From positions 1-64,000 of IMG/VR virus record IMGVR_UViG_3300033143_002031: 64,000 nucleotides of DNA. The stretch is one strand, 5' to 3'. The number at the start of each line of letters is the position of its first letter. Within the stretch, counting starts at the first letter, position 1. Source of the DNA: a virus. Below the pieces are notes generated by a model that saw only the letters and a list, made by a program, of their open reading frames with translations, searched no databases and had not been told where the DNA came from. Made by a program: the position numbers and the translations under genes. Shown piece by piece: positions 23,283-35,464 of the stretch.

Positions 23283-23732
23283 ATGGCTTTTCCGACCGGA
23301 TGGCCCCCGAGATTTTCCAGTGGTAAGCGGAACATCCGCTTCTACATTGCTGCGCTGGCAACGGCAAACTTCTCCGACCGCGCGTACCTGTTCGCCGATC
23401 AGGTCGGCGCGAACCCGTACACCCCCCTGCCGGTAGTTCGGCCCGGCGGGGACGTGTCGTCTCCGGACTATCCGGGGCCGACAGACATCGGCGCCAACCC
23501 AGCCGGAACGGGGCAGCACGGTGACGACCCGCACCCGATGATCTGGTCCGAGGGGATCATGATCATCAACAAGGGGGCGACGCCGATCTACTTCTCGTTT
23601 GATGGCGCCAACATCCAAGGCGAGGTCCCGCCGACCGCTGCCGGCGTCCCGGGGCAGATTTACATGGAGCGCTCTGAGGCTGGCATCGCCATCAACGGCG
23701 CCGGAAACAATTTCGTCGTCTATGCGTGGTAG
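23283..23732 (+). CDS. putative structural protein
   Basis: SD GAGGAGG; Pro/Gly-rich, beta-like C-terminus. Confidence 0.6.
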   Translation: MAFPTGWPPRFSSGKRNIRFYIAALATANFSDRAYLFADQVGANPYTPLPVVRPGGDVSSPDYPGPTDIGANPAGTGQHGDDPHPMIWSEGIMIINKGATPIYFSFDGANIQGEVPPTAAGVPGQIYMERSEAGIAINGAGNNFVVYAW

Positions 23733-25339
23733 CTGTGGCTGAGAAGAAGCCATACACGCCCCCGCCTCTCGGGATGCTGGGCATGAAGCTGGGGCAGGTC
23801 GTTCAGGCCCTTGGCCTCGGCAAGGCCAAGGCGCAGATCGTCCAGAAGGGCGGCCCAAAGCTCAAGCCCCTGAAGGTGCACAAGCCGGACGTGAAGCATG
23901 CGAAGAGCAAGACGCATCACGCCGGACCGAAGAAGCCCGCAGGACCCCCGCCGATCGAGGTCTACCCCTACATCGACTCCGAGACCAAGAAAGAGGACTC
24001 CGGCCTCGTCACACTGAAGATGGCCAAGCACAAGATGAGCGTCGAGAAGTTTGCCGCTCGTCTGAAGGAACTCAGCCTTGGCCTCGCGGTCGGGCACCAG
24101 AAGATCATCACCGGGTACAAGGCACACGTCGCCATCGTGTCCCGGGCGGAAGCCAAGGCAGCCTCGAACGAGAACCCGGGCGCGCTCCTCGTGGGGAAGT
24201 CGTCCCCGCTCAAGCCGATAAAGAAGTGGATCTCATCGGGCTGCGTCGTCCTCGACTCTGCGGACGACCACGACCACGTCTACGTGACCAAGCCATCGAA
24301 CCACTACGGTCCGTGGTGCTTGCCGAAGGGTACGGTGGACAAGGGCGAGTCGCTCAAGCAGACAGCACTTCGAGAGGTGTGGGAGGAGACTGGCCTCCGG
24401 GTCAAGATCATGACGGGGAAGATGGCCTACCTCGGGAAGTTTGAGGGCGGCTACTCGTTCACCCACTACTTCCTGGCGGTGAAGGTCGGCGGGAGCCCGC
24501 ACCCGACGAGAGAGACCGAGCGTGTCGCACTGGTCACGTGGGACGAGGCCCTGCGGTTGTTCCGGTCGGGTGGGAACACGCGGGACCCCAAGGTGATCAG
24601 GCTGGCCCGTCGTGCGTTGAGTCTCCGCGAGGACGCAGTAGAGGAAGCGACCGAGGAGCTACAGATCACGGCCTACCCCTACTCCTACGGCGGAGAGAAG
24701 GACACGGCCCGGATCATCCTGAAGGTGCCGACGAGCCAGGGGACGGCAGAGCAGTTCGATGCCATCCTGAAGGAATTCTCGCTCCGAATGGACTCGAAGC
24801 ACCCGGCGATCGAGACGAAGGCTACGGCCCACGTGGCAGTCGTCGCCCGAGACGACCTCGCCCGAGCGGCCAAGGCTGGAATGAAGGTCCAGCGACTCGC
24901 TATGCAGGGCATCGGGAAAGCTCAGAAGAAGTGGACGTCGGCCGGTGGCGTCGTGCTCGACTCGCTCGAAGGCGAGCCCAGCGTCTACATCATTCGGCCC
25001 GCGTCTTGGCCGGGAGGGTGGGCCTACCCGAAGGGGCAGGTGGACGAGGGGGAGACCAAGCAGAAGGCGGCGGTTCGGGAGGTGTTCGAGGAGACCGGCC
25101 TGCGGGCCAAGATACTCCCCGGCAAGTCCTACATCGGCAAGGGCGAGGGCAGCTACGCCGTCGCTCATTTCTATCTGATGGTGAAGACCGGCGGCAGCGC
25201 GAAACGGACGGACGAGACAAAGGGCATTCGGTTGGTCACGCTGGACGAGGCGGAGCGGCTGTTCCAACAGGTCGGGAACACCCGCGACCTCAGAATCACA
25301 CGCAAGGCACAGAAGCTCGTCAGCCAGCGCGTGAAGTGA
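23726..25339 (+). CDS. tandem double NUDIX hydrolase with basic N-terminal extension
   Basis: Two complete NUDIX boxes: GTVDKGESLKQTALREVWEETGL and GQVDEGETKQKAAVREVFEETGL; start codon uncertain. Confidence 0.85.
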   Translation: MVAVAEKKPYTPPPLGMLGMKLGQVVQALGLGKAKAQIVQKGGPKLKPLKVHKPDVKHAKSKTHHAGPKKPAGPPPIEVYPYIDSETKKEDSGLVTLKMAKHKMSVEKFAARLKELSLGLAVGHQKIITGYKAHVAIVSRAEAKAASNENPGALLVGKSSPLKPIKKWISSGCVVLDSADDHDHVYVTKPSNHYGPWCLPKGTVDKGESLKQTALREVWEETGLRVKIMTGKMAYLGKFEGGYSFTHYFLAVKVGGSPHPTRETERVALVTWDEALRLFRSGGNTRDPKVIRLARRALSLREDAVEEATEELQITAYPYSYGGEKDTARIILKVPTSQGTAEQFDAILKEFSLRMDSKHPAIETKATAHVAVVARDDLARAAKAGMKVQRLAMQGIGKAQKKWTSAGGVVLDSLEGEPSVYIIRPASWPGGWAYPKGQVDEGETKQKAAVREVFEETGLRAKILPGKSYIGKGEGSYAVAHFYLMVKTGGSAKRTDETKGIRLVTLDEAERLFQQVGNTRDLRITRKAQKLVSQRVK

Positions 25340-25712: not shown

Positions 25713-26042
25713 ATGAAGGCGCGTCTGAAGGCGTTCTGGAAGCGATCTAAGTGGGTAATCCTGAGCGTTGCCGGGGTTTTGGTCCTGGTCCTCGCCTTCC
25801 TGCTTCGAGGTCTCTTCGCTCGAAAGCTCCCTGAGCGTGACCCGCTGGACCCCAAGCCGCTGCCGCCCATAGATGAACGAGTCCACGAGCGCGTGAAGGC
25901 GGCCGAAGAGGAAGCGACCGTCGCGCGCATCGAGGCCAGGGTCCGGGCGAGCACCGACCGGGAGCAACTGGAGCGCATCTCTCAGGTCGAGGATGGGGCC
26001 GAGCGTCGGCGTCGCCTGGCGGCCATGCTACGGAGGCTCTGA
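25713..26042 (+). CDS. N-terminal TM plus coiled-coil protein (i-spanin-like candidate)
   Basis: WVILSVAGVLVLVLAFLL followed by a charged helix. Confidence 0.5.
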   Translation: MKARLKAFWKRSKWVILSVAGVLVLVLAFLLRGLFARKLPERDPLDPKPLPPIDERVHERVKAAEEEATVARIEARVRASTDREQLERISQVEDGAERRRRLAAMLRRL

Positions 26043-28297
26043 TGCTCTCCGAGACGTTCGCGAGCACCTTCGGGGTGAAGGCCCAATGGACACGGGTTCA
26101 ACGCTCGGACCTGTCCAAGGACCCCGACCTCGCGAAGGAGCTTCTGCGTCTCATCGGCATCGCTTACAAGCCGCTCGGTGGCCACCTGAAGATCAAGTCG
26201 CCCAAGGACTTGACCGGCGCGATCACGTTCATCACGGCGGTAGACGTCGACAAGGACCCCCAGGCGGATGCAACGCTCTTGGGGCGGAAGGTCGGCAACG
26301 CGGTCAAACTCACAGCGCTGGGCCAGGATGGCAGCGCTCTGGCGAAGAAGGAAGCGCTGTCGTACTGGGGCGAGCTACTGCGCCGGGGCAAGGCATACGC
26401 CGAGGTCAGTGGACCCATCGCTCACATCATGCTCACGCGCCACAGCGTGCCTACGGTAGGCGGGCAGAAGGTCGTTGAGCGTGTCCTCGGGAAGAAGGTC
26501 GAGTGGGTGGGAGAGCGCCCGGACGGCAAGTACCCCGGGGTCAAGAACTGGTACCGGCGGAAGATCGGCGGCGGGACCCACATGAAGATTCTCGTGGGTA
26601 GGGTCGGCGGCGCGAAGTCGGGGCGAACGGAGGCTGTGATGGAGTACGTTACCGAGTTCAATCACCTGGCAGGCATCGGACCATCCCTCTGTGAGAAGGT
26701 GGCGGCCGACCCCATGCTGTCGACGCTGGCCAAGGCGTTCTCCGTCAAGGCGGTCAGGCCGGTGGACGTGAAGTTCATCCGCTACCGCAAGGTCGGCCAC
26801 GGCGTCGAGTTGGAGGACGTGGCCAGTCGGCTCGGGGACATCCTCACCTCGGTCGAGTCCAAGGAAGCCGACCCGAAAGCTCTCGTGGCCTTCCTGAAGA
26901 AGCACGGCGCGAAGCCGGCCCCGAAGGTCACGGAGGAGGTCGGGAAGTCGTGGGTGAACACCGTCGTCCCGAAGGTCATCGAGGCCGGCGGGAAGGTGTA
27001 TGTGGTCCGAAGTGTGTCGAAGATCGAGGCCGGCATGGGTATGTCGCGCACGATCGACTCACGCACCGGGAAGCAGTACTACACCCACTGGCTCAGGCTT
27101 CAGCCGGTGCGGGGCAAGAAGAAGCTGCCGGAGTACACCGCGAAGACTCGCACCATCGACGCCTACCTCGGAAGTGACGGGACGATCGGGATCAAGCAAG
27201 GGCGGTCGCACCGGGCCGGCGTCCTCGGCATGACGTTCAAGGCGGTCCACGGCTTCGACGAGTCCCTGGACGAGGCTGAGAAGTCGTCCCCGCTCATTGG
27301 CTGGCTCAACGAGAAGCTGAAGTCGAAGGGCATCCACGCCTGGCACGCCAAGGACATGAGCAACGGCATGTACCATGTGGCCTTCGGCAAACTCGGGTCC
27401 AAGTACGCCGAGGAGAAGTGGGTCGTCGATCCCAAACGTGGAGGGGTTCACCAGATCGAGACCTCGGCGGACAAGGCTTATGCTGCTGTCTTCTCCCTGA
27501 TCAAGAAGGCCAGGTCGGAGATCAAGAGGTCGCCGGACCTCCTGAAGGTGGAGTCGCTGGACGAGGCGGGCAAGACCTCCATCCACGTCACCACGATCAA
27601 GTCGAAGCACGGCGATAGCTACAAGTTCGACGTGACAGGAGAGTTTCGCGGAGACCCGATCCATGTGGAGTCGCTGGCTGTACACATGCACATTGATCGT
27701 ATCGGCTCGACCCTGGTGGGCCACATCCTGCCCGACACCAAATTCCACCGTGAGAGTGGCAAGTCGTTCCCCTACGGCTTCCGGATGAAGATTGAGAAGG
27801 CGGTCCTTGCTGAACTTCTGAAGCTGGCGAAGAAGCATGGCTCGGACATCGAGGAGTCCACCGCGTCGCTGGATGAGGGTAGTCAGGTCGGCAAGACGAT
27901 CCTTCACCAGATGGGCGGTTCGGGCGCTATCGTAGCCATGCTCGGGGGCTCCTACACCTACTTGTCCAAGGGCGTCGGTATCCGCTGGCCGAACAAGCAA
28001 CGCTCGAAGGGCAACTACGTGGAGATCGTGCTCACGCCTGCCGACGAGTACGACGTGACCTTCTACAACATGAAGGGCACGATGAAGTACTGGCACCCGG
28101 AGAACTCGAAGAAGGCGGTCAAGCGATACAAGGGCCTCATGTTCGATCAGCTTCGCGAGATCTTCTACAAGCAAACCGGCTGGACTCTGAGCAAGCCGAG
28201 GGTCCGTATGGCACCAGCGTCGCCGGAGCGTGAAGAGCGGATCAAGAAAGCCAAGGCGGAGCTACGGGCGAGTTGGAAAAAAGCGGGACTCCTCTGA
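26042..28297 (+). CDS. multi-module basic protein with acidic linkers (putative processed head cargo)
   Basis: Linkers FDESLDEA, VESLDEA, EESTASLDEG separate Lys-rich modules. Confidence 0.7.
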   Translation: MLSETFASTFGVKAQWTRVQRSDLSKDPDLAKELLRLIGIAYKPLGGHLKIKSPKDLTGAITFITAVDVDKDPQADATLLGRKVGNAVKLTALGQDGSALAKKEALSYWGELLRRGKAYAEVSGPIAHIMLTRHSVPTVGGQKVVERVLGKKVEWVGERPDGKYPGVKNWYRRKIGGGTHMKILVGRVGGAKSGRTEAVMEYVTEFNHLAGIGPSLCEKVAADPMLSTLAKAFSVKAVRPVDVKFIRYRKVGHGVELEDVASRLGDILTSVESKEADPKALVAFLKKHGAKPAPKVTEEVGKSWVNTVVPKVIEAGGKVYVVRSVSKIEAGMGMSRTIDSRTGKQYYTHWLRLQPVRGKKKLPEYTAKTRTIDAYLGSDGTIGIKQGRSHRAGVLGMTFKAVHGFDESLDEAEKSSPLIGWLNEKLKSKGIHAWHAKDMSNGMYHVAFGKLGSKYAEEKWVVDPKRGGVHQIETSADKAYAAVFSLIKKARSEIKRSPDLLKVESLDEAGKTSIHVTTIKSKHGDSYKFDVTGEFRGDPIHVESLAVHMHIDRIGSTLVGHILPDTKFHRESGKSFPYGFRMKIEKAVLAELLKLAKKHGSDIEESTASLDEGSQVGKTILHQMGGSGAIVAMLGGSYTYLSKGVGIRWPNKQRSKGNYVEIVLTPADEYDVTFYNMKGTMKYWHPENSKKAVKRYKGLMFDQLREIFYKQTGWTLSKPRVRMAPASPEREERIKKAKAELRASWKKAGLL

Positions 28298-29815: not shown

Positions 29816-30370
29816 ATGAGAAAGCTCGTAGTCATGGTGGCCCTGCTCTCCTTCGGCTGTGGCGCAGCCCAGACCCCCGAGGTGCGACCATTGGTCGCCG
29901 ATGATAGGCGCCCCGAGGCTCGTGAGATGGTCCAGGACGCCCGGGACGAGTCGCTGCCCGAGGGCACGCCCCAGCACCTCCCCGAGTCCTACGTCATGCC
30001 TGTGGAGGCCGGAGAGTGCATCCCCGAGGACGGGCGCCGCATACCACCCTCGGACGAGGAGTTGGTCCTACTCGGACCGTGCCCCGAGGAGTCCGGCATA
30101 TTCGTCTCCGAGGCGCGAGCGAACCGCGACGCCATCTATCGCATCCGCTACCGCGAGATGAGGGACACCTACCGGGCGGATCGGCAGGTGTGGTCGGCGC
30201 ACCGGGAACTCTACGAGGCCCAGGTCGCGGCTGACCGGGAGGAGATTGCTCGGCTCCAGCCCACGTTCTGGGAGCAGCACGACGGGGAGATCCTGGCGAC
30301 GCTCGGTGTCATCGTCGGGGCAGCCCTCACGGTGGCCATCACATTCGCTGTGAACCAGGCATCGGAGTGA
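29816..30370 (+). CDS. lipoprotein with C-terminal TM helix (spanin-like candidate)
   Basis: Signal MRKLVVMVALLSFG-C lipobox; coiled coil; C-terminal ILATLGVIVGAALTVAITFAV. Confidence 0.6.
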   Translation: MRKLVVMVALLSFGCGAAQTPEVRPLVADDRRPEAREMVQDARDESLPEGTPQHLPESYVMPVEAGECIPEDGRRIPPSDEELVLLGPCPEESGIFVSEARANRDAIYRIRYREMRDTYRADRQVWSAHRELYEAQVAADREEIARLQPTFWEQHDGEILATLGVIVGAALTVAITFAVNQASE

Positions 30371-32388
30371 TCATGGCGGCGGTCTTCACAGAGGCACAGC
30401 GCGCCGGCCTGCACGCTCTCAGCGAGGGCACCATCGACGATCAGTGGATCAAGGGTATCCGTGCCGGGTGGAAACTCCTGGTGAAGCAGACCAAGAAGTT
30501 CAAGGGTCGCCGCTCCACCGCCCCGGCCATGGAGCAGAGCTACCTCGACGCTGCCGCTGACGGGTCCACGGCGGCCCTCCAGAACGTCCAGCGGTACATC
30601 GGACGCCTCCGTGACGACCTGCTCTTGAACAAGGGCTTCTGGGACCTCCCCTCTGATGCTCAGGGCAAGAAAGAACTGAGCATCATTCGTCGCTACAAGA
30701 CCAAGGTCATCGACGAACTCGACGCCGCAGAAGAGGCGATCTCAGACGGCCTGAGCTACGCACGCACCGTCAAGGAAGCAGCCTCGAAGGATGGGGGCAT
30801 CGGTGGGCGCGAAGGCTACATGCACCAGGAGACCTACGCTTCTCAGGATCGGTTCAACTTCACGCTGAATGGGTTCGGGGAGCGTCTCGACGGCATCATG
30901 ACCATGGCGGACAAGGCAATCTCCGGTCGCCTGTTCCGCCATCTGTCCAAGGTGCTCGCCACGTCGTTCAAGCATGTCCTCGACTACCCGACCAAGGGCA
31001 GCGAGAAGTGGCGCAGCAAGAAGCGGTACGTGAAGAAGCAGGTTCCCCTCGACTGGGGCGAGCACGAGCCCCCGGTGGTCCACCTCGGCAAGGCCACGGT
31101 CATCTTCCAGGACATGCCAGGCGAAGGGGCGGGCGGCACCATCTCTCCTCGGAAGGTCGGTTCCGAGACGACGGTGAAGAAGGGCGGCGAGGTCGTCACC
31201 ACCAAAGAGGTTACGTCGCGGACCAAGTACGGCGGCGGGTACATGCACCCGAGGGACCGGAAGGAGTTCGTCGATGGCCTGAAGGAGGCCCAGGCGAGGC
31301 TGCGAGCGAAGCGGCTCGGAAAGCTCTTCCACGGTCACTTCCTCATCGAGCCCAAGGAGCGTGCAGGGACGAACCAGTACGGGGCTCATCTCGGGGTCGG
31401 TGGGAGGTACTACCGCAAGGGCGACGCGATCCACCTCTACGGGGGCAGCAAAGGTCCGCACTCCGTCGCGGTGGTCGCCATTCACGAGATCGGGCACCGC
31501 TACTACTACAAGAACCTGACCTCCCAAGATCGGCACAACTTCGACAAGTGGTTCAAGGATGTGCCGGCGGTGTCGAGCTACGGCGGCATCAACCCTGCCG
31601 AGGACTTTGCCGAGGTCTTTACCCACTACGTGCTCGGGCAAGACATGACCAAGGACCAGATGCAACGGTTCCGGCAGTTCATGACCGGGCACAGGCCGAG
31701 GACGGAAGCAATGGAAGAGAGCGCGGCCACGAAATCTCAGGAGTGCATGTTCTGTGATGAGCCGGCGGTGTCGAGCCTCATCTGGGAAGACGGCCAGAAC
31801 TACGTGGCCGTGTGCCGGGCTCACATGGCCGAGGGCAGGATACATATCAGCCTCGAAGGAGGGTCGGTCTGCGACGTCAAGAACGTCGAGAACGGGCCGA
31901 TCGCCTACCGGGAGAGCCGATGCTACCCGGCGACTCATCCGCAGGCACGCATGGAGGCGGCCCTAGAGCCCGCTCTGGCGTTCGTGGAGGAGGAAGAGGC
32001 TGGAACCCACTTCGGCCTCCAGGCGAGCCCTGAGAGGCTCCAGAGCGCCTTCCAGGAGGCCCCAGCGCAGCCCCCGCCCCGGGCACCTATCGGCAGGAGG
32101 TCCACGCCACGCGGAGCGGTCATCCCCTCCAGGCGAGGCGGCGACGAGCCGATGGGCTTCACCAAGGGTGCGATCACGAAATACCACGGCCAGCGGGCCA
32201 AGCGCGTGAGCCAGCGGACGCCGAGGACGACGCAGCTACCGAGCGGAGTCAAGCAGGAGATTCCGGACTCCCTGATGCAGATGCTCGGGACCGACTGGAA
32301 GAACATGCGCGCCACGCGCGTCCACGACAACCGCATGACCATCAACATTGACGGTGTTCGGTTCTCGGTCTACACGAGGAGAGGGTAA
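30367..32388 (+). CDS. multi-module protein with zincin-like metallopeptidase domain
   Basis: AIHEIGHRY...VSSYGGINPAEDFAEVF; FTEAQR N-terminus; TEAMEES linker. Confidence 0.75.
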   Translation: MIMAAVFTEAQRAGLHALSEGTIDDQWIKGIRAGWKLLVKQTKKFKGRRSTAPAMEQSYLDAAADGSTAALQNVQRYIGRLRDDLLLNKGFWDLPSDAQGKKELSIIRRYKTKVIDELDAAEEAISDGLSYARTVKEAASKDGGIGGREGYMHQETYASQDRFNFTLNGFGERLDGIMTMADKAISGRLFRHLSKVLATSFKHVLDYPTKGSEKWRSKKRYVKKQVPLDWGEHEPPVVHLGKATVIFQDMPGEGAGGTISPRKVGSETTVKKGGEVVTTKEVTSRTKYGGGYMHPRDRKEFVDGLKEAQARLRAKRLGKLFHGHFLIEPKERAGTNQYGAHLGVGGRYYRKGDAIHLYGGSKGPHSVAVVAIHEIGHRYYYKNLTSQDRHNFDKWFKDVPAVSSYGGINPAEDFAEVFTHYVLGQDMTKDQMQRFRQFMTGHRPRTEAMEESAATKSQECMFCDEPAVSSLIWEDGQNYVAVCRAHMAEGRIHISLEGGSVCDVKNVENGPIAYRESRCYPATHPQARMEAALEPALAFVEEEEAGTHFGLQASPERLQSAFQEAPAQPPPRAPIGRRSTPRGAVIPSRRGGDEPMGFTKGAITKYHGQRAKRVSQRTPRTTQLPSGVKQEIPDSLMQMLGTDWKNMRATRVHDNRMTINIDGVRFSVYTRRG

Positions 32389-32392
32389 GACA

Positions 32393-35300
32393 ATGACAGA
32401 CCACCATAGCCATCTTCGCCGCCTTGTTGAGTCTCGGTCGGATGATACGCACCTGGACCCCATGGCTCATTTCCAGACGCTCTCTGGCATCCGTCCGACG
32501 CTTCCGGGCCTGACCGAAGAGGACGAGAGCGTCTTCGACAAGCCCCAGTGGGTCAAGGACTTCAAGGCCGGCTGGGAGGCATCGAAGAAGGCGAAGAAGG
32601 AGATTCCGCCGAAGAAGGCGTACAACATGGCCCGGGTCAGCAAGAAGCACGGCACCTACTGGATCGACGGCTATGCGGCGTGGGTTGATCACAAGCGTGG
32701 AGCCCACGCCCAGCCAGGTGTCCGCGACGCGAAGAAGATGGGTCTCACCGAGGACGTCGAGTTCACCGAGAGAACGGTCCTCGGAGACGTCGCGACCTTC
32801 CTGAAGCGCAAGGACGTGGACAATCTCTCGGCAGCGGACGAGAAGCACGTGGCCATGATGCTGGGGCACATGGGCAAGGGCGAGCTACAGCAGATCATCC
32901 GCGCGTGGGATCGGCCCCTGCACCACCGCAACCCGGAGAAGGTGTTCATCGTCGACACGGCCAAGGACGTGCTCTCCCACAAGATCCACTCCGAGGACGT
33001 GGACGACCTGGACGAGGGCGATCCCAAGATGCTGTCGAAGCTCGGGAAGCCGGTGAAGGTCGTCAAGGCTGGCGTCATGAAGCTCTACGTCTACCGCTCC
33101 AAGAGCCCGTACAGCAAGTACGCGGTGGTCGTGCAGGGCAAGGGAGGCAAGAAGGAATTGCCCGGGGCGAGCGGGAACACGCCGGAAGAGGCGATCGAGA
33201 AGACCAAGGCGATGCTGAAGAAGGCTGGTGGCAAAGTCGAGGACGTGGACGATCTCAGCGAACGCGCGCCACGCTACGCGGCGGGCGGGAAGTCGCTCGG
33301 CTACTTCCTCTCAGGTTTGGATCTCGTCATCGAGAACCAGAAGAAGTACGGCAGGCCGACCTACGTTGGTAGCGCCGTGCGCAAACTCACCCACGATCAG
33401 GCTCAGTGGGTCGTCAAGAGAGTACCCACTGCCGGATGGATGGAAGGCCCGAACCCCACCGAGGGGAAGAAGGCTGTCTATCTGGACGCGCACAGCCGCA
33501 AGATGTGGGACTTCCGAAATGAACTGGAGACCCAAGCCTACGAGGAGGACGTGGATGACCTCGGCGAGGCGGTCCCGCTCAACGTGGCGGCAAAGGAGGC
33601 CAACGCTATCGCCTCTGGTGCCGCGAAGCTGGCTCGCATGCTCGGTCAAGGACGTGCAGCGCAGATGAGCAAGAGCGACTACACCAAGGCTCGAAAGCTC
33701 GTCGGCGAGATGCTATTCACGGCTGCCAGGGCGATGGATGCTCTGAGCATGGACGTGAAGCCGATCCTTCACGCCTCGAAGCAAGCCAAGGGCGGGATGT
33801 CCGAGGCTAGCATCGTGCGAGGGGCTTCCCCGATGGCGGACCTTCCCGGCGGTGGCGGCGCAGGGATGTACGCTTCCGACCTCCAGGGGTTCGCACGCGA
33901 GTTGGGGCGGCATCTCGGACAGGCCGGAGCAGATTACCAGTCCAAGGCTGCGAACCGGGCTCGTGGTGCGCTCGGGTCGGTCTTGGCGGCCCTCGGCGTC
34001 ATCATGAAGAACATCGGCCTGGAAGCTGCTTCCATCGGCGTCCGCAAGTCGGCTCGGGGGATCTTCAAGAAGTACGGGAAGATGGCAGGGCAGTCCAATT
34101 GGCTCGAAGCCATGGAAGACGAGGACGATCTGGACGAGGCCGACAAGCTCGGCAAGCCGGACGTCATCACCGGCATGAAGTTCGGCACTCGCTACAAGTA
34201 CAACCACGGGATCTTCATCGACCACGTGGAGGACAAGCGCGAGTACCACGTCTCTCAGGCTGGGCGACCCTCGAAGAAGCTGGGGTACGCCAAGACGCTG
34301 GCCAAGGCCAAGGAGATTGCCCTGCGGAAGGGCGACTTCATGGAGAGCGCCGACGATCTGGACGAGCGCCAGAAGGTCGAGCCCGGCATGGGCGGCGAGA
34401 CCGTGCCCGGCTCGATCAAGATCCACCCCGGGAAGTGGGGTGACTTCGGCAAGCGTGGGCCGAAGACCGTGACGTCCAAGCCCGTGATGACCCGGCAGGG
34501 CTCCTTCAAGTTGAGCAGCCAAGCCCTGAAGATGTTCGCCAAGATGGGCGACACGCCGGACCAGGCCCTCTTCAAGGGTCAGCAGAAGATCATGAACGCG
34601 ATCCCGCGCGAAAAACTCCCCACGGTCATCGGGGAGACGGACATCGCGGGCGCTCAGGACGAACTAGCTCGCAACCCGAAGGGCGCTATCCAGAAGTTCA
34701 TGCGGAACATCCACAAGGTGTCTCCGAAGGCTGGCAAGATGCTCCGCGCTGTGCCGGAGAACGCCGCGCTGTACTTCTACATCTACGCGATGAACGTGAG
34801 CGGCCGGGACATGGCCGACGAGATCCTGAAGCGGTACCTCACGACTCACCAGGCGTTCAAGCCGGTGAAGAAGGAGGACGTGGACGACCTGGACGAGGCC
34901 ATGGGCCTCGTGAAGGGTGACAAGGTTCGAGTCACCAAGGGGAAGATGAAGGGGCTGAAGGGTGTAGTCACCTATGTCGGCTCAGGGCCGAAAGGCGACA
35001 AGGTATCTGTCCGCATCGACCACCCTGTGCATCGCATGATGGGACCTGCTCTTGTGGACCCGAAGATTCTTGTGAAGGAGGACGTGGACGACCTGGACGA
35101 GGCCAAAGAGCGGTTCGAGTTGGTCTACGGGTCCGGTGGGACCGGCGGCCCGTACTGGACCGAGTGGGCGGCCATGGAGCAGGCTGAAAAGCTCATGAAG
35201 GGCAGCCGCAGCGAGACGTGGATCGCGGTTGTACCCGCCCGGCAAACTACGGACCTCGCTAAGGCCAAGCCCACGGCCTACCTGCACCGGAAGAAGAAGG

Positions 35301-35464
35301 GTTGGACCAAGGGCGGCGGCATGACCCTGAAGCAGATCTTCAAGGGCCACTTCCGCGAGGGGGTCGACCCTGTGGCAGACGGCAACGTGCTGATCACTGA
35401 CGACGTGCGACGGTTCCGCGTTCTCGTGGGCATGGACCCGCTGCCGCGACGCCTGGAGGGTTGA
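32393..35464 (+). CDS. polyprotein of about ten small basic modules joined by EDVDDLDE-type linkers; one module has a KOW motif
   Basis: SD GAGGAGAGG, ATG 32393; seven EDVDDL(D/S/G)E-like linkers; LVKGDKVRVTKGKMKGLKGVV is KOW-like. Confidence 0.8.
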   Translation: MTDHHSHLRRLVESRSDDTHLDPMAHFQTLSGIRPTLPGLTEEDESVFDKPQWVKDFKAGWEASKKAKKEIPPKKAYNMARVSKKHGTYWIDGYAAWVDHKRGAHAQPGVRDAKKMGLTEDVEFTERTVLGDVATFLKRKDVDNLSAADEKHVAMMLGHMGKGELQQIIRAWDRPLHHRNPEKVFIVDTAKDVLSHKIHSEDVDDLDEGDPKMLSKLGKPVKVVKAGVMKLYVYRSKSPYSKYAVVVQGKGGKKELPGASGNTPEEAIEKTKAMLKKAGGKVEDVDDLSERAPRYAAGGKSLGYFLSGLDLVIENQKKYGRPTYVGSAVRKLTHDQAQWVVKRVPTAGWMEGPNPTEGKKAVYLDAHSRKMWDFRNELETQAYEEDVDDLGEAVPLNVAAKEANAIASGAAKLARMLGQGRAAQMSKSDYTKARKLVGEMLFTAARAMDALSMDVKPILHASKQAKGGMSEASIVRGASPMADLPGGGGAGMYASDLQGFARELGRHLGQAGADYQSKAANRARGALGSVLAALGVIMKNIGLEAASIGVRKSARGIFKKYGKMAGQSNWLEAMEDEDDLDEADKLGKPDVITGMKFGTRYKYNHGIFIDHVEDKREYHVSQAGRPSKKLGYAKTLAKAKEIALRKGDFMESADDLDERQKVEPGMGGETVPGSIKIHPGKWGDFGKRGPKTVTSKPVMTRQGSFKLSSQALKMFAKMGDTPDQALFKGQQKIMNAIPREKLPTVIGETDIAGAQDELARNPKGAIQKFMRNIHKVSPKAGKMLRAVPENAALYFYIYAMNVSGRDMADEILKRYLTTHQAFKPVKKEDVDDLDEAMGLVKGDKVRVTKGKMKGLKGVVTYVGSGPKGDKVSVRIDHPVHRMMGPALVDPKILVKEDVDDLDEAKERFELVYGSGGTGGPYWTEWAAMEQAEKLMKGSRSETWIAVVPARQTTDLAKAKPTAYLHRKKKGWTKGGGMTLKQIFKGHFREGVDPVADGNVLITDDVRRFRVLVGMDPLPRRLEG
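32993..35105 (+). repeat. dispersed direct repeats encoding the polyprotein linker
   Basis: GAGGACGTGGACGACCTGGACGAG identical at 32993, 34874 and 35078 (32-bp identity 34870-34901 vs 35074-35105); variants at 33239, 33545, 34115, 34343. Confidence 0.9.

Follow-up and report, generated by a model that had tools for sequence, protein, structure and literature searches.

The polyprotein gene and its linkers

We analyzed a stretch of 64,000 nucleotides (nt), hereafter called the window, which is the first 64 kb of a single virus record (IMGVR_UViG_3300033143_002031; 184,744 bp, 62.5% GC). The open reading frame (ORF) at positions 32393-35464 of the plus strand comprises 1,023 codons plus a stop codon and is open and strongly coding, with a GC content at third codon positions of 0.84. 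An earlier note on this DNA described the product as a polyprotein of about ten small basic modules on a repeated linker. The ATG at 32393 is located five bases 3' of the stop codon of the upstream gene (32388), and the related proteins begin with M-T-D-x-H-S-H-L. We therefore take this ATG to be the true start. All parts of the gene described below lie on the plus strand.

Seven copies of the linker E-[DS]-[VEA]-D-D-L-[DSG]-E were found in the polyprotein, starting at amino acids (aa) 201, 283, 385, 575, 651, 828, and 896 (nt 32993, 33239, 33545, 34115, 34343, 34874, and 35078), and divide it into eight segments. No further ORF in the genome (184,744 bp) contains the linker motif. All seven linkers terminate in D-L-x-E, and the first segment contains a further L-T-E at aa 42 and another at aa 120. 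The eight linker-delimited segments and these two extra sites account for the estimate of about ten units. The cores of all modules are basic, with isoelectric points (pI) of 9.0-10.4, and no similarity was found between modules apart from the linker, in agreement with the description of the modules as mutually unrelated.

The linker was also said to be conserved at the DNA level. The 24-nt linker core is indeed identical at 32993, 34874, and 35078, and the last two copies lie within a perfect 32-nt repeat (34870-34901 and 35074-35105) that brackets module 7 exactly. Given the codon usage of the genome, three identical copies have a probability of approximately 2e-4 to 6e-4. The remaining four linkers carry synonymous differences (GAT, CTC, GAA), and the count of identical codons for all seven linkers (100 of 140, compared to 82 expected) represents a modest excess. 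Conservation at the DNA level applies to a subset of the linkers, not to all seven.

Modules of the polyprotein

The first segment begins with an N-terminal leader (aa 1-42, 32393-32518) ending in G-L-T-E. This candidate capsid-targeting propeptide is 47-83% identical in 15 relatives with other cargo, and homology to the related locus L002 breaks at its end. Module 1b (aa 43-120, 32519-32752) likewise ends in G-L-T-E. More than 15 clusters contain it, either by itself or in another setting, and its DNA is 91% identical to L002 over 32515-32756, compared to 75-84% for the backbone. Module 1c (aa 121-208, 32753-33016) includes linker 1 (32993-33016). A decayed linker, K-D-V-D-N-L-S-A, was observed inside module 1c at 32810-32833, with 68-76% DNA identity to the live linkers, which suggests that two former modules fused after loss of the cut site.

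Module 2 (aa 209-290, 33017-33262, including linker 2 at 33239-33262) has homologues in P0004 (aa 46-121) and P0010 (aa 675-748), and its DNA blocks shared with the related loci L058 and L004 start 5-6 nt past linker 1 and stop in linker 2. Homologues of module 3 (aa 291-392, 33263-33568, including linker 3 at 33545-33568) were found in P0025, P0065, P0110, and P0129, and homologues of the Ala/Gly-rich, helical module 4 (aa 393-582, 33569-34138, including linker 4 at 34115-34138) in P0018 and P0020. Module 5 (aa 583-658, 34139-34366, including linker 5 at 34343-34366) is found at aa 212-287 of P0003 with 95% aa identity and at aa 122-197 of P0004.

Module 6 (aa 659-835, 34367-34897, including linker 6 at 34874-34897) is predicted to be all-helical. 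Among the 150 best phmmer matches (representatives of 50%-identity clusters) described below, it is the most widespread module, being present in most of them. Its family alignment contains nearly invariant Q-D, P, and A-D positions. Module 7 (aa 836-903, 34898-35101, including linker 7 at 35078-35101) is a predicted KOW barrel resembling the C-terminal domain (CTD) of NusG and is flanked by the perfect 32-nt repeat. The core of module 8 (aa 904-987, 35102-35353) is a predicted alpha/beta domain with a predicted local distance difference test (pLDDT) score of 85-95. It occurs in more than 30 clusters and is internal in P0003, where it is followed by its own L-D-E linker.

The polyprotein ends with a C-terminal tail (aa 988-1023, 35354-35461) containing the motif A-D-G..L-I-T-[ED]-D..R-x-R-V-L-x-G..P-L-P. 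The tail, which is predicted to be disordered or a short helix, is conserved in all family members, even in those with further modules downstream, and its sequence is unique in its own genome. No second copy of any module was found in the genome of the phage by tblastn with each module (E <= 0.01).

Module content and order differ between relatives

A phmmer search against 1.84e9 representatives together with a word-indexed search gave 214 matches at E <= 1e-3, the best 150 of which were considered individually. In each of these 150 proteins, which range in length from 71 to 1,858 aa and are matched at varied positions, the best stretch lies inside one module or a neighboring pair. These matches, together with the two-domain structural model described below, indicate that the modules are independent. 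Fifteen relatives constitute the family proper. They have a common leader ending in L-x-E and a common C-terminal tail, with different and sometimes reordered cargo between. Module order and content, which the earlier note had singled out for comparison, thus both differ among relatives with the same leader and tail. For the 16 leader-and-tail proteins the median shared fraction was 0.24, and 12 of the 60 pairs having at least two shared blocks were non-collinear. This block collinearity test was used in place of single-linkage clustering of segments, which collapsed to one cluster.

The joints in the relatives consist of an acidic stretch that ends in [LMV]-x-E, with A, G, S, or R as the next residue. 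In unrelated proteins, the module start coincided with [LIMVF]-x-E in 36 of 75 cases compared to 14% at random positions (p = 2e-12), and 24% of shared-block ends fell within 6 aa of such sites compared to 9%, the points being not independent in either comparison. Modules 5 and 6 also have stand-alone homologues, in which a leader of about 25-30 aa precedes the module and terminates in L-x-E at that same boundary; in the stand-alone forms of module 6 the leader of about 25 aa is followed by a conserved R-Q-K.

A peptide-pattern scan of IMG/VR with the whole polyprotein gave no relative. Of 54 loci found in IMG/VR with a degenerate form of the 24-nt linker, L004 was the sole relative, the others being chance acidic stretches. 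A word search with the leader alone gave just two relatives, this search being restricted by its need for exact words. No near relative of the record was found among 50,697 phage records by tblastn or blastn. Seven long proteins holding single modules gave nothing in Pfam but DUF2958 in one of them, and module 8 matched solely unnamed viral clusters in the ESM Atlas (score 0.78).

Shared DNA begins and ends at linkers

The gene order NUDIX, variable gene, polyprotein, 137-aa gene, and tubulin, with further genes after the first and before the last, was kept in L002, L058, L059, and L004. The flanking genes of L002 have 75-84% DNA identity to those of the window. Inside the polyprotein gene L002 matched only in the leader, module 1b, module 6, and the tail. 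The module 6 match (87.5%) stops within linker 6, and the module 1b block (32515-32756) is bounded by the two L-T-E codons. L002 has other sequence in place of modules 1c to 5 and lacks modules 7 and 8. Its deletion junction falls in the first codons of what is linker 6 in the window, at a point where the beginning of the linker (GAG GAC GTG GAC) is similar to that of the tail (GAG GGG GTC GAC). Module 5 is 88% identical in DNA to L058 over 34130-34366, with both ends in linkers, compared to 71-77% for the backbone. A linker stretch of 27 nt is matched exactly in L004, which is otherwise about 74% identical. Considering the DNA homology blocks with four related loci, 11 of 12 block ends were found at a linker or an L-x-E codon. 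The shared modules are closer in DNA than the backbone that flanks them, which suggests recent exchange.

A second carrier gene of 236 aa is located at 44308-45018 on the plus strand. The contig L061 is syntenic with window positions 42255-45093 (68-77% identity) and contains its orthologue, P0033 (L061 1791-2630, 65% aa identity). P0033 holds module 7 with an E-D-V-D-D-L-G-E linker at 84% DNA identity, directly after an L-S-E|A site, which indicates that the module travels with its linker between carrier genes. The earlier note had reported a paralog of one module at the end of this protein, which it placed at 44362. The resemblance was found to be weak: the C-terminus of the 44308-45018 protein is 32% identical to module 4 over 72 aa, with a pairwise E = 0.002. 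The motif L-A-A-L..K..G-x-E-A-A-S is common to both.

Altogether, these observations establish a cassette architecture in which the unit is a module plus its linker.

Predicted folds of the modules

The alignment made with MAFFT for 102 mosaic proteins was too poor for a full-length fold, and structures were predicted with AlphaFold2 (AF2) for modules 6, 7, and 8. Module 6, modeled from its module alignment, was predicted as a confident all-helical domain (pLDDT 81). It had no fold match at E <= 0.001 in PDB and BFVD with Foldseek, its best VIA-align match had a Z of 5.4, and its profile had no match among the PDB sequences. Modules 7 and 8, modeled together, were predicted as two confident domains (pLDDT 88-95) with a dip to 58 exactly at the linker, a predicted template modeling score of 0.55, and a low-confidence tail. 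This pattern fits beads on a string. The fold of modules 7 and 8 was searched jointly, and the KOW domain filled the match lists.

A KOW motif had been noticed in one module in the earlier note, and the predicted structure bears this out. The model of module 7 aligned to an Spt5 KOW domain with a VIA-align Z of 9.0 (root mean square deviation 2.1 over 59 residues) and to NusG with Z of 8.7 and 8.2, and Foldseek matched it to NusG 1m1g at E 2.8e-4 with 32% identity. The Pfam match to KOW2_Spt5 (24.5 bits) is below the cut-off of 28.9, and weak UpxY and KOW sequence matches were also found. As judged from its model, module 7 is a NusG/Spt5-type KOW barrel. It contains no NGN domain and consists of about 60 linker-bounded residues, hence it does not have the full NusG architecture.

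Head genes and the candidate protease

The remainder of the genome encodes a gp21-type protease (Peptidase_S77, PF03420) at genome positions 154019-155722, outside the window. Its score was 69.7 bits when the genome was scanned and 67 bits for the ORF by itself (cut-off 27), and it aligns to the T4 gp21 structure 5JBL at E 3e-7. A T4-type portal protein gp20 (PF07230, E 3e-72) and a gp23 capsid protein (PF07068, E 8e-73) are also encoded, and by sequence the phage is T4-type in its head genes. Just ahead of its gp23 domain, at aa 61-65, the capsid protein contains S-L-T-E|E. The S77 domain (aa 36-183) was observed to be fused to a scaffold-like, acidic coiled-coil C-terminal extension of about 380 aa (genome 154019-155722; L060 8020-9723). 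The gene adjoining that of the protease (genome 152752-153774) encodes an extremely acidic candidate scaffold; the candidate scaffolds are for the most part disordered. In the 42.7-kb record fragment holding L004, the S77 search gave a sub-threshold match only.

In T4, gp21 cuts after L/I-x-E, and the N-terminal capsid-targeting sequence by which the internal proteins enter the prohead is removed at such a site (PMC9026906). The linker motif, the presence of a T4-type protease, and the matching leaders of the stand-alone homologues together make it a strong inference that the linker is a prohead-protease cut site. We consider it probable that this T4-like phage uses the gene to make a capsid-cargo polyprotein, that cleavage in the prohead turns it into about ten small basic internal proteins, and that the linker marks the boundary of the units exchanged. 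The contrast of the basic module cores with the acidic candidate scaffold and the acidic extension of the protease also speaks for this interpretation. The conserved 42-residue leader, and perhaps the tail too, would recruit the precursor to the prohead core. The gp21-type serine protease would then cut after the Glu of every L-x-E, that is, in the seven linkers and at the L-T-E of aa 42 and aa 120, and free about ten small basic proteins of 68-190 aa. These would stay with the packaged DNA and enter the host alongside it, as the T4 internal proteins do, and one of them would be a free NusG-CTD-like KOW domain. Cleavage, targeting, and the functions of the modules are what we infer in this scheme, as are packaging and ejection, for which T4 is the analogy.

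Several points weigh against this interpretation. The polyprotein contains 19 [LIMVF]-x-E triplets in all, so the bare motif is unselective and the joints would have to be marked by their acidic context. The neighbors of the gene look non-structural (NUDIX, a methyltransferase-like gene, and tubulin) and the head module is about 115 kb away; in T4, too, the ip and alt genes are remote from those of the head. No similarity between the leader and the T4 targeting sequence was detected, a recognizable fold was found in only one of the three modules modeled, with modules 6 and 8 giving no structural lead, and the phage is known from uncultured sequence only. The protease is diverged, and that it cuts after L-x-E is presumed from T4; S77 enzymes of the phiKZ type favor other P3 residues (PMC9026906, PMC10052503).

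The gene could also encode an uncleaved multidomain, "polyvalent" virion or early protein whose chain acts as a whole, with the acidic repeats serving as flexible spacers that possibly balance charge or mimic DNA. Phages commonly encode polyvalent proteins with 2-15 domains, some of which are delivered without being processed (PMC5512222). It is plausible in itself that basic domains should be separated by acidic spacers, and the linker is predicted to be flexible at its pLDDT of 58. However, the invariant part of the linker, D-D-L-x-E, is the protease motif, and the relatives vary the acidic context yet keep [LMV]-x-E followed by A, G, or R. The stand-alone homologues moreover have a removable-looking leader that ends at the same L-x-E, and the genome encodes a gp21-type protease. 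We regard an uncleaved protein as distinctly unlikely.

Neighboring genes

The gene upstream of the polyprotein (30367-32388, plus strand) encodes a protein of 673 aa with an H-E-I-G-H zinc-peptidase motif and weak Peptidase_Mx and ATLF matches. Its product begins with the leader A-V-F-T-E-A-Q-R-A-G-L-H-A-L-S-E|G. The orthologues span 217-661 aa, indicating that this gene is also mosaic.

This neighbor is one candidate for an enzyme other than the prohead protease. A true polyprotein might be processed outside the capsid, by the adjacent metallopeptidase, by a host protease, or by self-cleavage, and its products would then be early cytoplasmic proteins rather than cargo. Such a role is compatible with the zinc-peptidase motif and the weak family matches as well as with the location of the locus amid non-structural genes, and polyvalent proteins are processed by embedded or adjacent metallopeptidases (PMC5512222). 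The H-E-x-x-H part of the upstream gene is, however, absent in L058, which keeps the polyprotein and its L-x-E joints. These are also kept in the contig of P0003, where the upstream orthologue is just 322 aa compared to 673. A cut after Glu at L-x-E is the S77 signature (PMC9026906), and the leader of the upstream protein itself ends in L-x-E. Processing by another enzyme is therefore very unlikely in our judgment, and the capsid-cargo polyprotein cut by the gp21-type protease is the interpretation that we retain.

Outside the window, four ORFs at genome positions 68982-71812 start with a common leader, [K/H]-[T/A]-[L/I]-F-T-E..R..L-x-E. This second class of leader differs from that of the polyprotein and is similar to the beginning of the 30367 gene.

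Further genes were observed in the window. The gene at 26042-28297 (751 aa) only partly matches its 340-aa counterpart in L002 in DNA, which makes it another mosaic gene of the same cluster; the C-terminus of its product matches phrog_9437, a family of unknown function. At 23726-25339 a 537-aa protein with two NUDIX domains is encoded, with orthologues of 281-667 aa. The 217-aa protein encoded at 37817-38470 matches the middle of the PHROG DNA methyltransferase family phrog_799 at E 2e-30. For the 448-aa gene at 39650-40996, the syntenic genes in L002, L003, and L059 have a Pfam tubulin/TubZ-like match, indicating a phage tubulin in a T4-like genome.

Nature of the products and role of the linker DNA

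Loading and cleavage in the capsid would not by themselves make the products effectors. The products could instead be internal proteins that condense DNA or neutralize its charge, or parts of the core, in which case the shuffling would reflect relaxed constraint and no arms race. Every module is basic, with a pI of 9-10.4, the lysines of T4 internal proteins contact DNA phosphates (PMC3012670), and no module matches a known enzyme or anti-defense family. That the modules are distinct folded domains with 40-90% identity over many phage lineages is, by contrast, an argument for specific functions. Also against this possibility, one module is a predicted NusG-type KOW domain, and the DNA of shared modules is more alike than the flanking backbone, which suggests recent exchange. 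A purely structural role of the products thus seems rather unlikely to us.

The earlier note had further proposed that the linker DNA acts as a recombination joint for gain or loss of modules and the linker peptide as a cleavage signal. This interpretation as a cassette array is partly supported. A joint in the linker DNA is favored by the three identical linker copies and the 32-nt repeats that bracket module 7, as well as by the L002 junction and the 27-nt match in L004. Against it, drift at synonymous sites is seen in four of the seven linkers. It is possible that the linker DNA is an active recombination substrate; however, much of the pattern could be accounted for by codon bias and by selection that favors in-frame exchanges at the boundaries of domains.

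The observations may be read more broadly as a delivery "grammar" of T4-like phages, a proposal that we find doubtful. It would consist of one leader, any number of modules each with an acidic L-x-E linker, and a tail. The linker would serve both as head-protease cut site and as DNA joint at which modules are inserted, deleted, or moved between genes and phages. Injected effectors would thereby be swapped like cassettes, and one of them would be a free KOW domain possibly competing for the host partners of NusG (Rho, ribosomal protein S10).

If the capsid-cargo interpretation is true, one gene would use a single targeting signal to bring equal numbers of about ten different small proteins into the capsid. 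The set would be re-dealt between phages at standard joints, a compact way of varying the injected proteins against host defenses. Dozens of domain families from phage dark matter would gain a context as capsid cargo, which would show which of these domains to examine for anti-defense or host-takeover activity. The arrangement would also represent a natural design for packing several foreign proteins into T4-type heads.

Comparison with known systems

The closest parallel is with the T4 proteins IPI, IPII, IPIII, and Alt. The phage has a T4-type portal, capsid protein, and S77 protease, and as in T4 we find small basic proteins, a leader ending in L/I-x-E, and variable cargo behind a conserved element (PMC9026906, PMC3012670). 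The internal proteins of T-even phages are diverse, and the capsid-targeting sequence alone is conserved (PMC3012670). The arrangement of leader and tail found here recalls T4 Alt, both ends of which are processed. In T4, however, the cargo proteins are encoded by separate genes, each with a 10-residue targeting sequence, whereas about nine cargo modules here share one 42-residue leader and a standard acidic linker. No homology to the T4 internal proteins or their targeting sequence was found in Pfam, PHROG, or NCBIfam or by tblastn in the 50,697 phage records.

Polyvalent proteins (Iyer et al. 2017, PMC5512222) likewise combine many unrelated domains in combinatorial architectures, and their delivery with the DNA and proteolytic release have been proposed. 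Unlike the modules described here, which are small, belong to unknown families, and are separated by one repeated site of the prohead-protease type, their domains are recognizable as enzymes or effectors; a peptidase is frequently embedded among them, and a standard linker is lacking. No MuF, metallopeptidase, ADP-ribosyltransferase, nuclease, or similar domain was found in the polyprotein, where the sub-threshold KOW match was the sole match.

The inner-body or ejection proteins of phiKZ, 201phi2-1, and SPN3US are also cut after Glu, by the S77 proteases gp175 and gp245, at several sites per protein, and constitute a large ejected cargo (PMC10052503, PMC5694885). In these phages the cuts chop N-terminal propeptides and leave one mature protein, whereas here each segment between sites is an independent conserved domain.

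With respect to DNA, the PeSL promoter-terminator cassettes of T4-type genomes similarly tie a short conserved boundary sequence to gain, loss, and replacement of units among related phages of the T4 type (PMC2839356, PMC4122927). PeSLs are intergenic and regulatory and shuffle whole genes, while the boundary described here is coding, in-frame, and inside one ORF, and doubles as a peptide signal. The polyproteins of RNA viruses and retroviruses resemble the present one in that a single product gives several proteins by cleavage with a viral protease at short consensus sites. There is no sequence relation to these, the protease is encoded elsewhere in the genome, and the modules are interchangeable accessories and not a fixed set for replication or structure. 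Literature searches turned up no published account of a phage cargo polyprotein whose modules are joined by a standard cleavable linker, and we regard the system as a variant of the T4 internal-protein and capsid-targeting theme.

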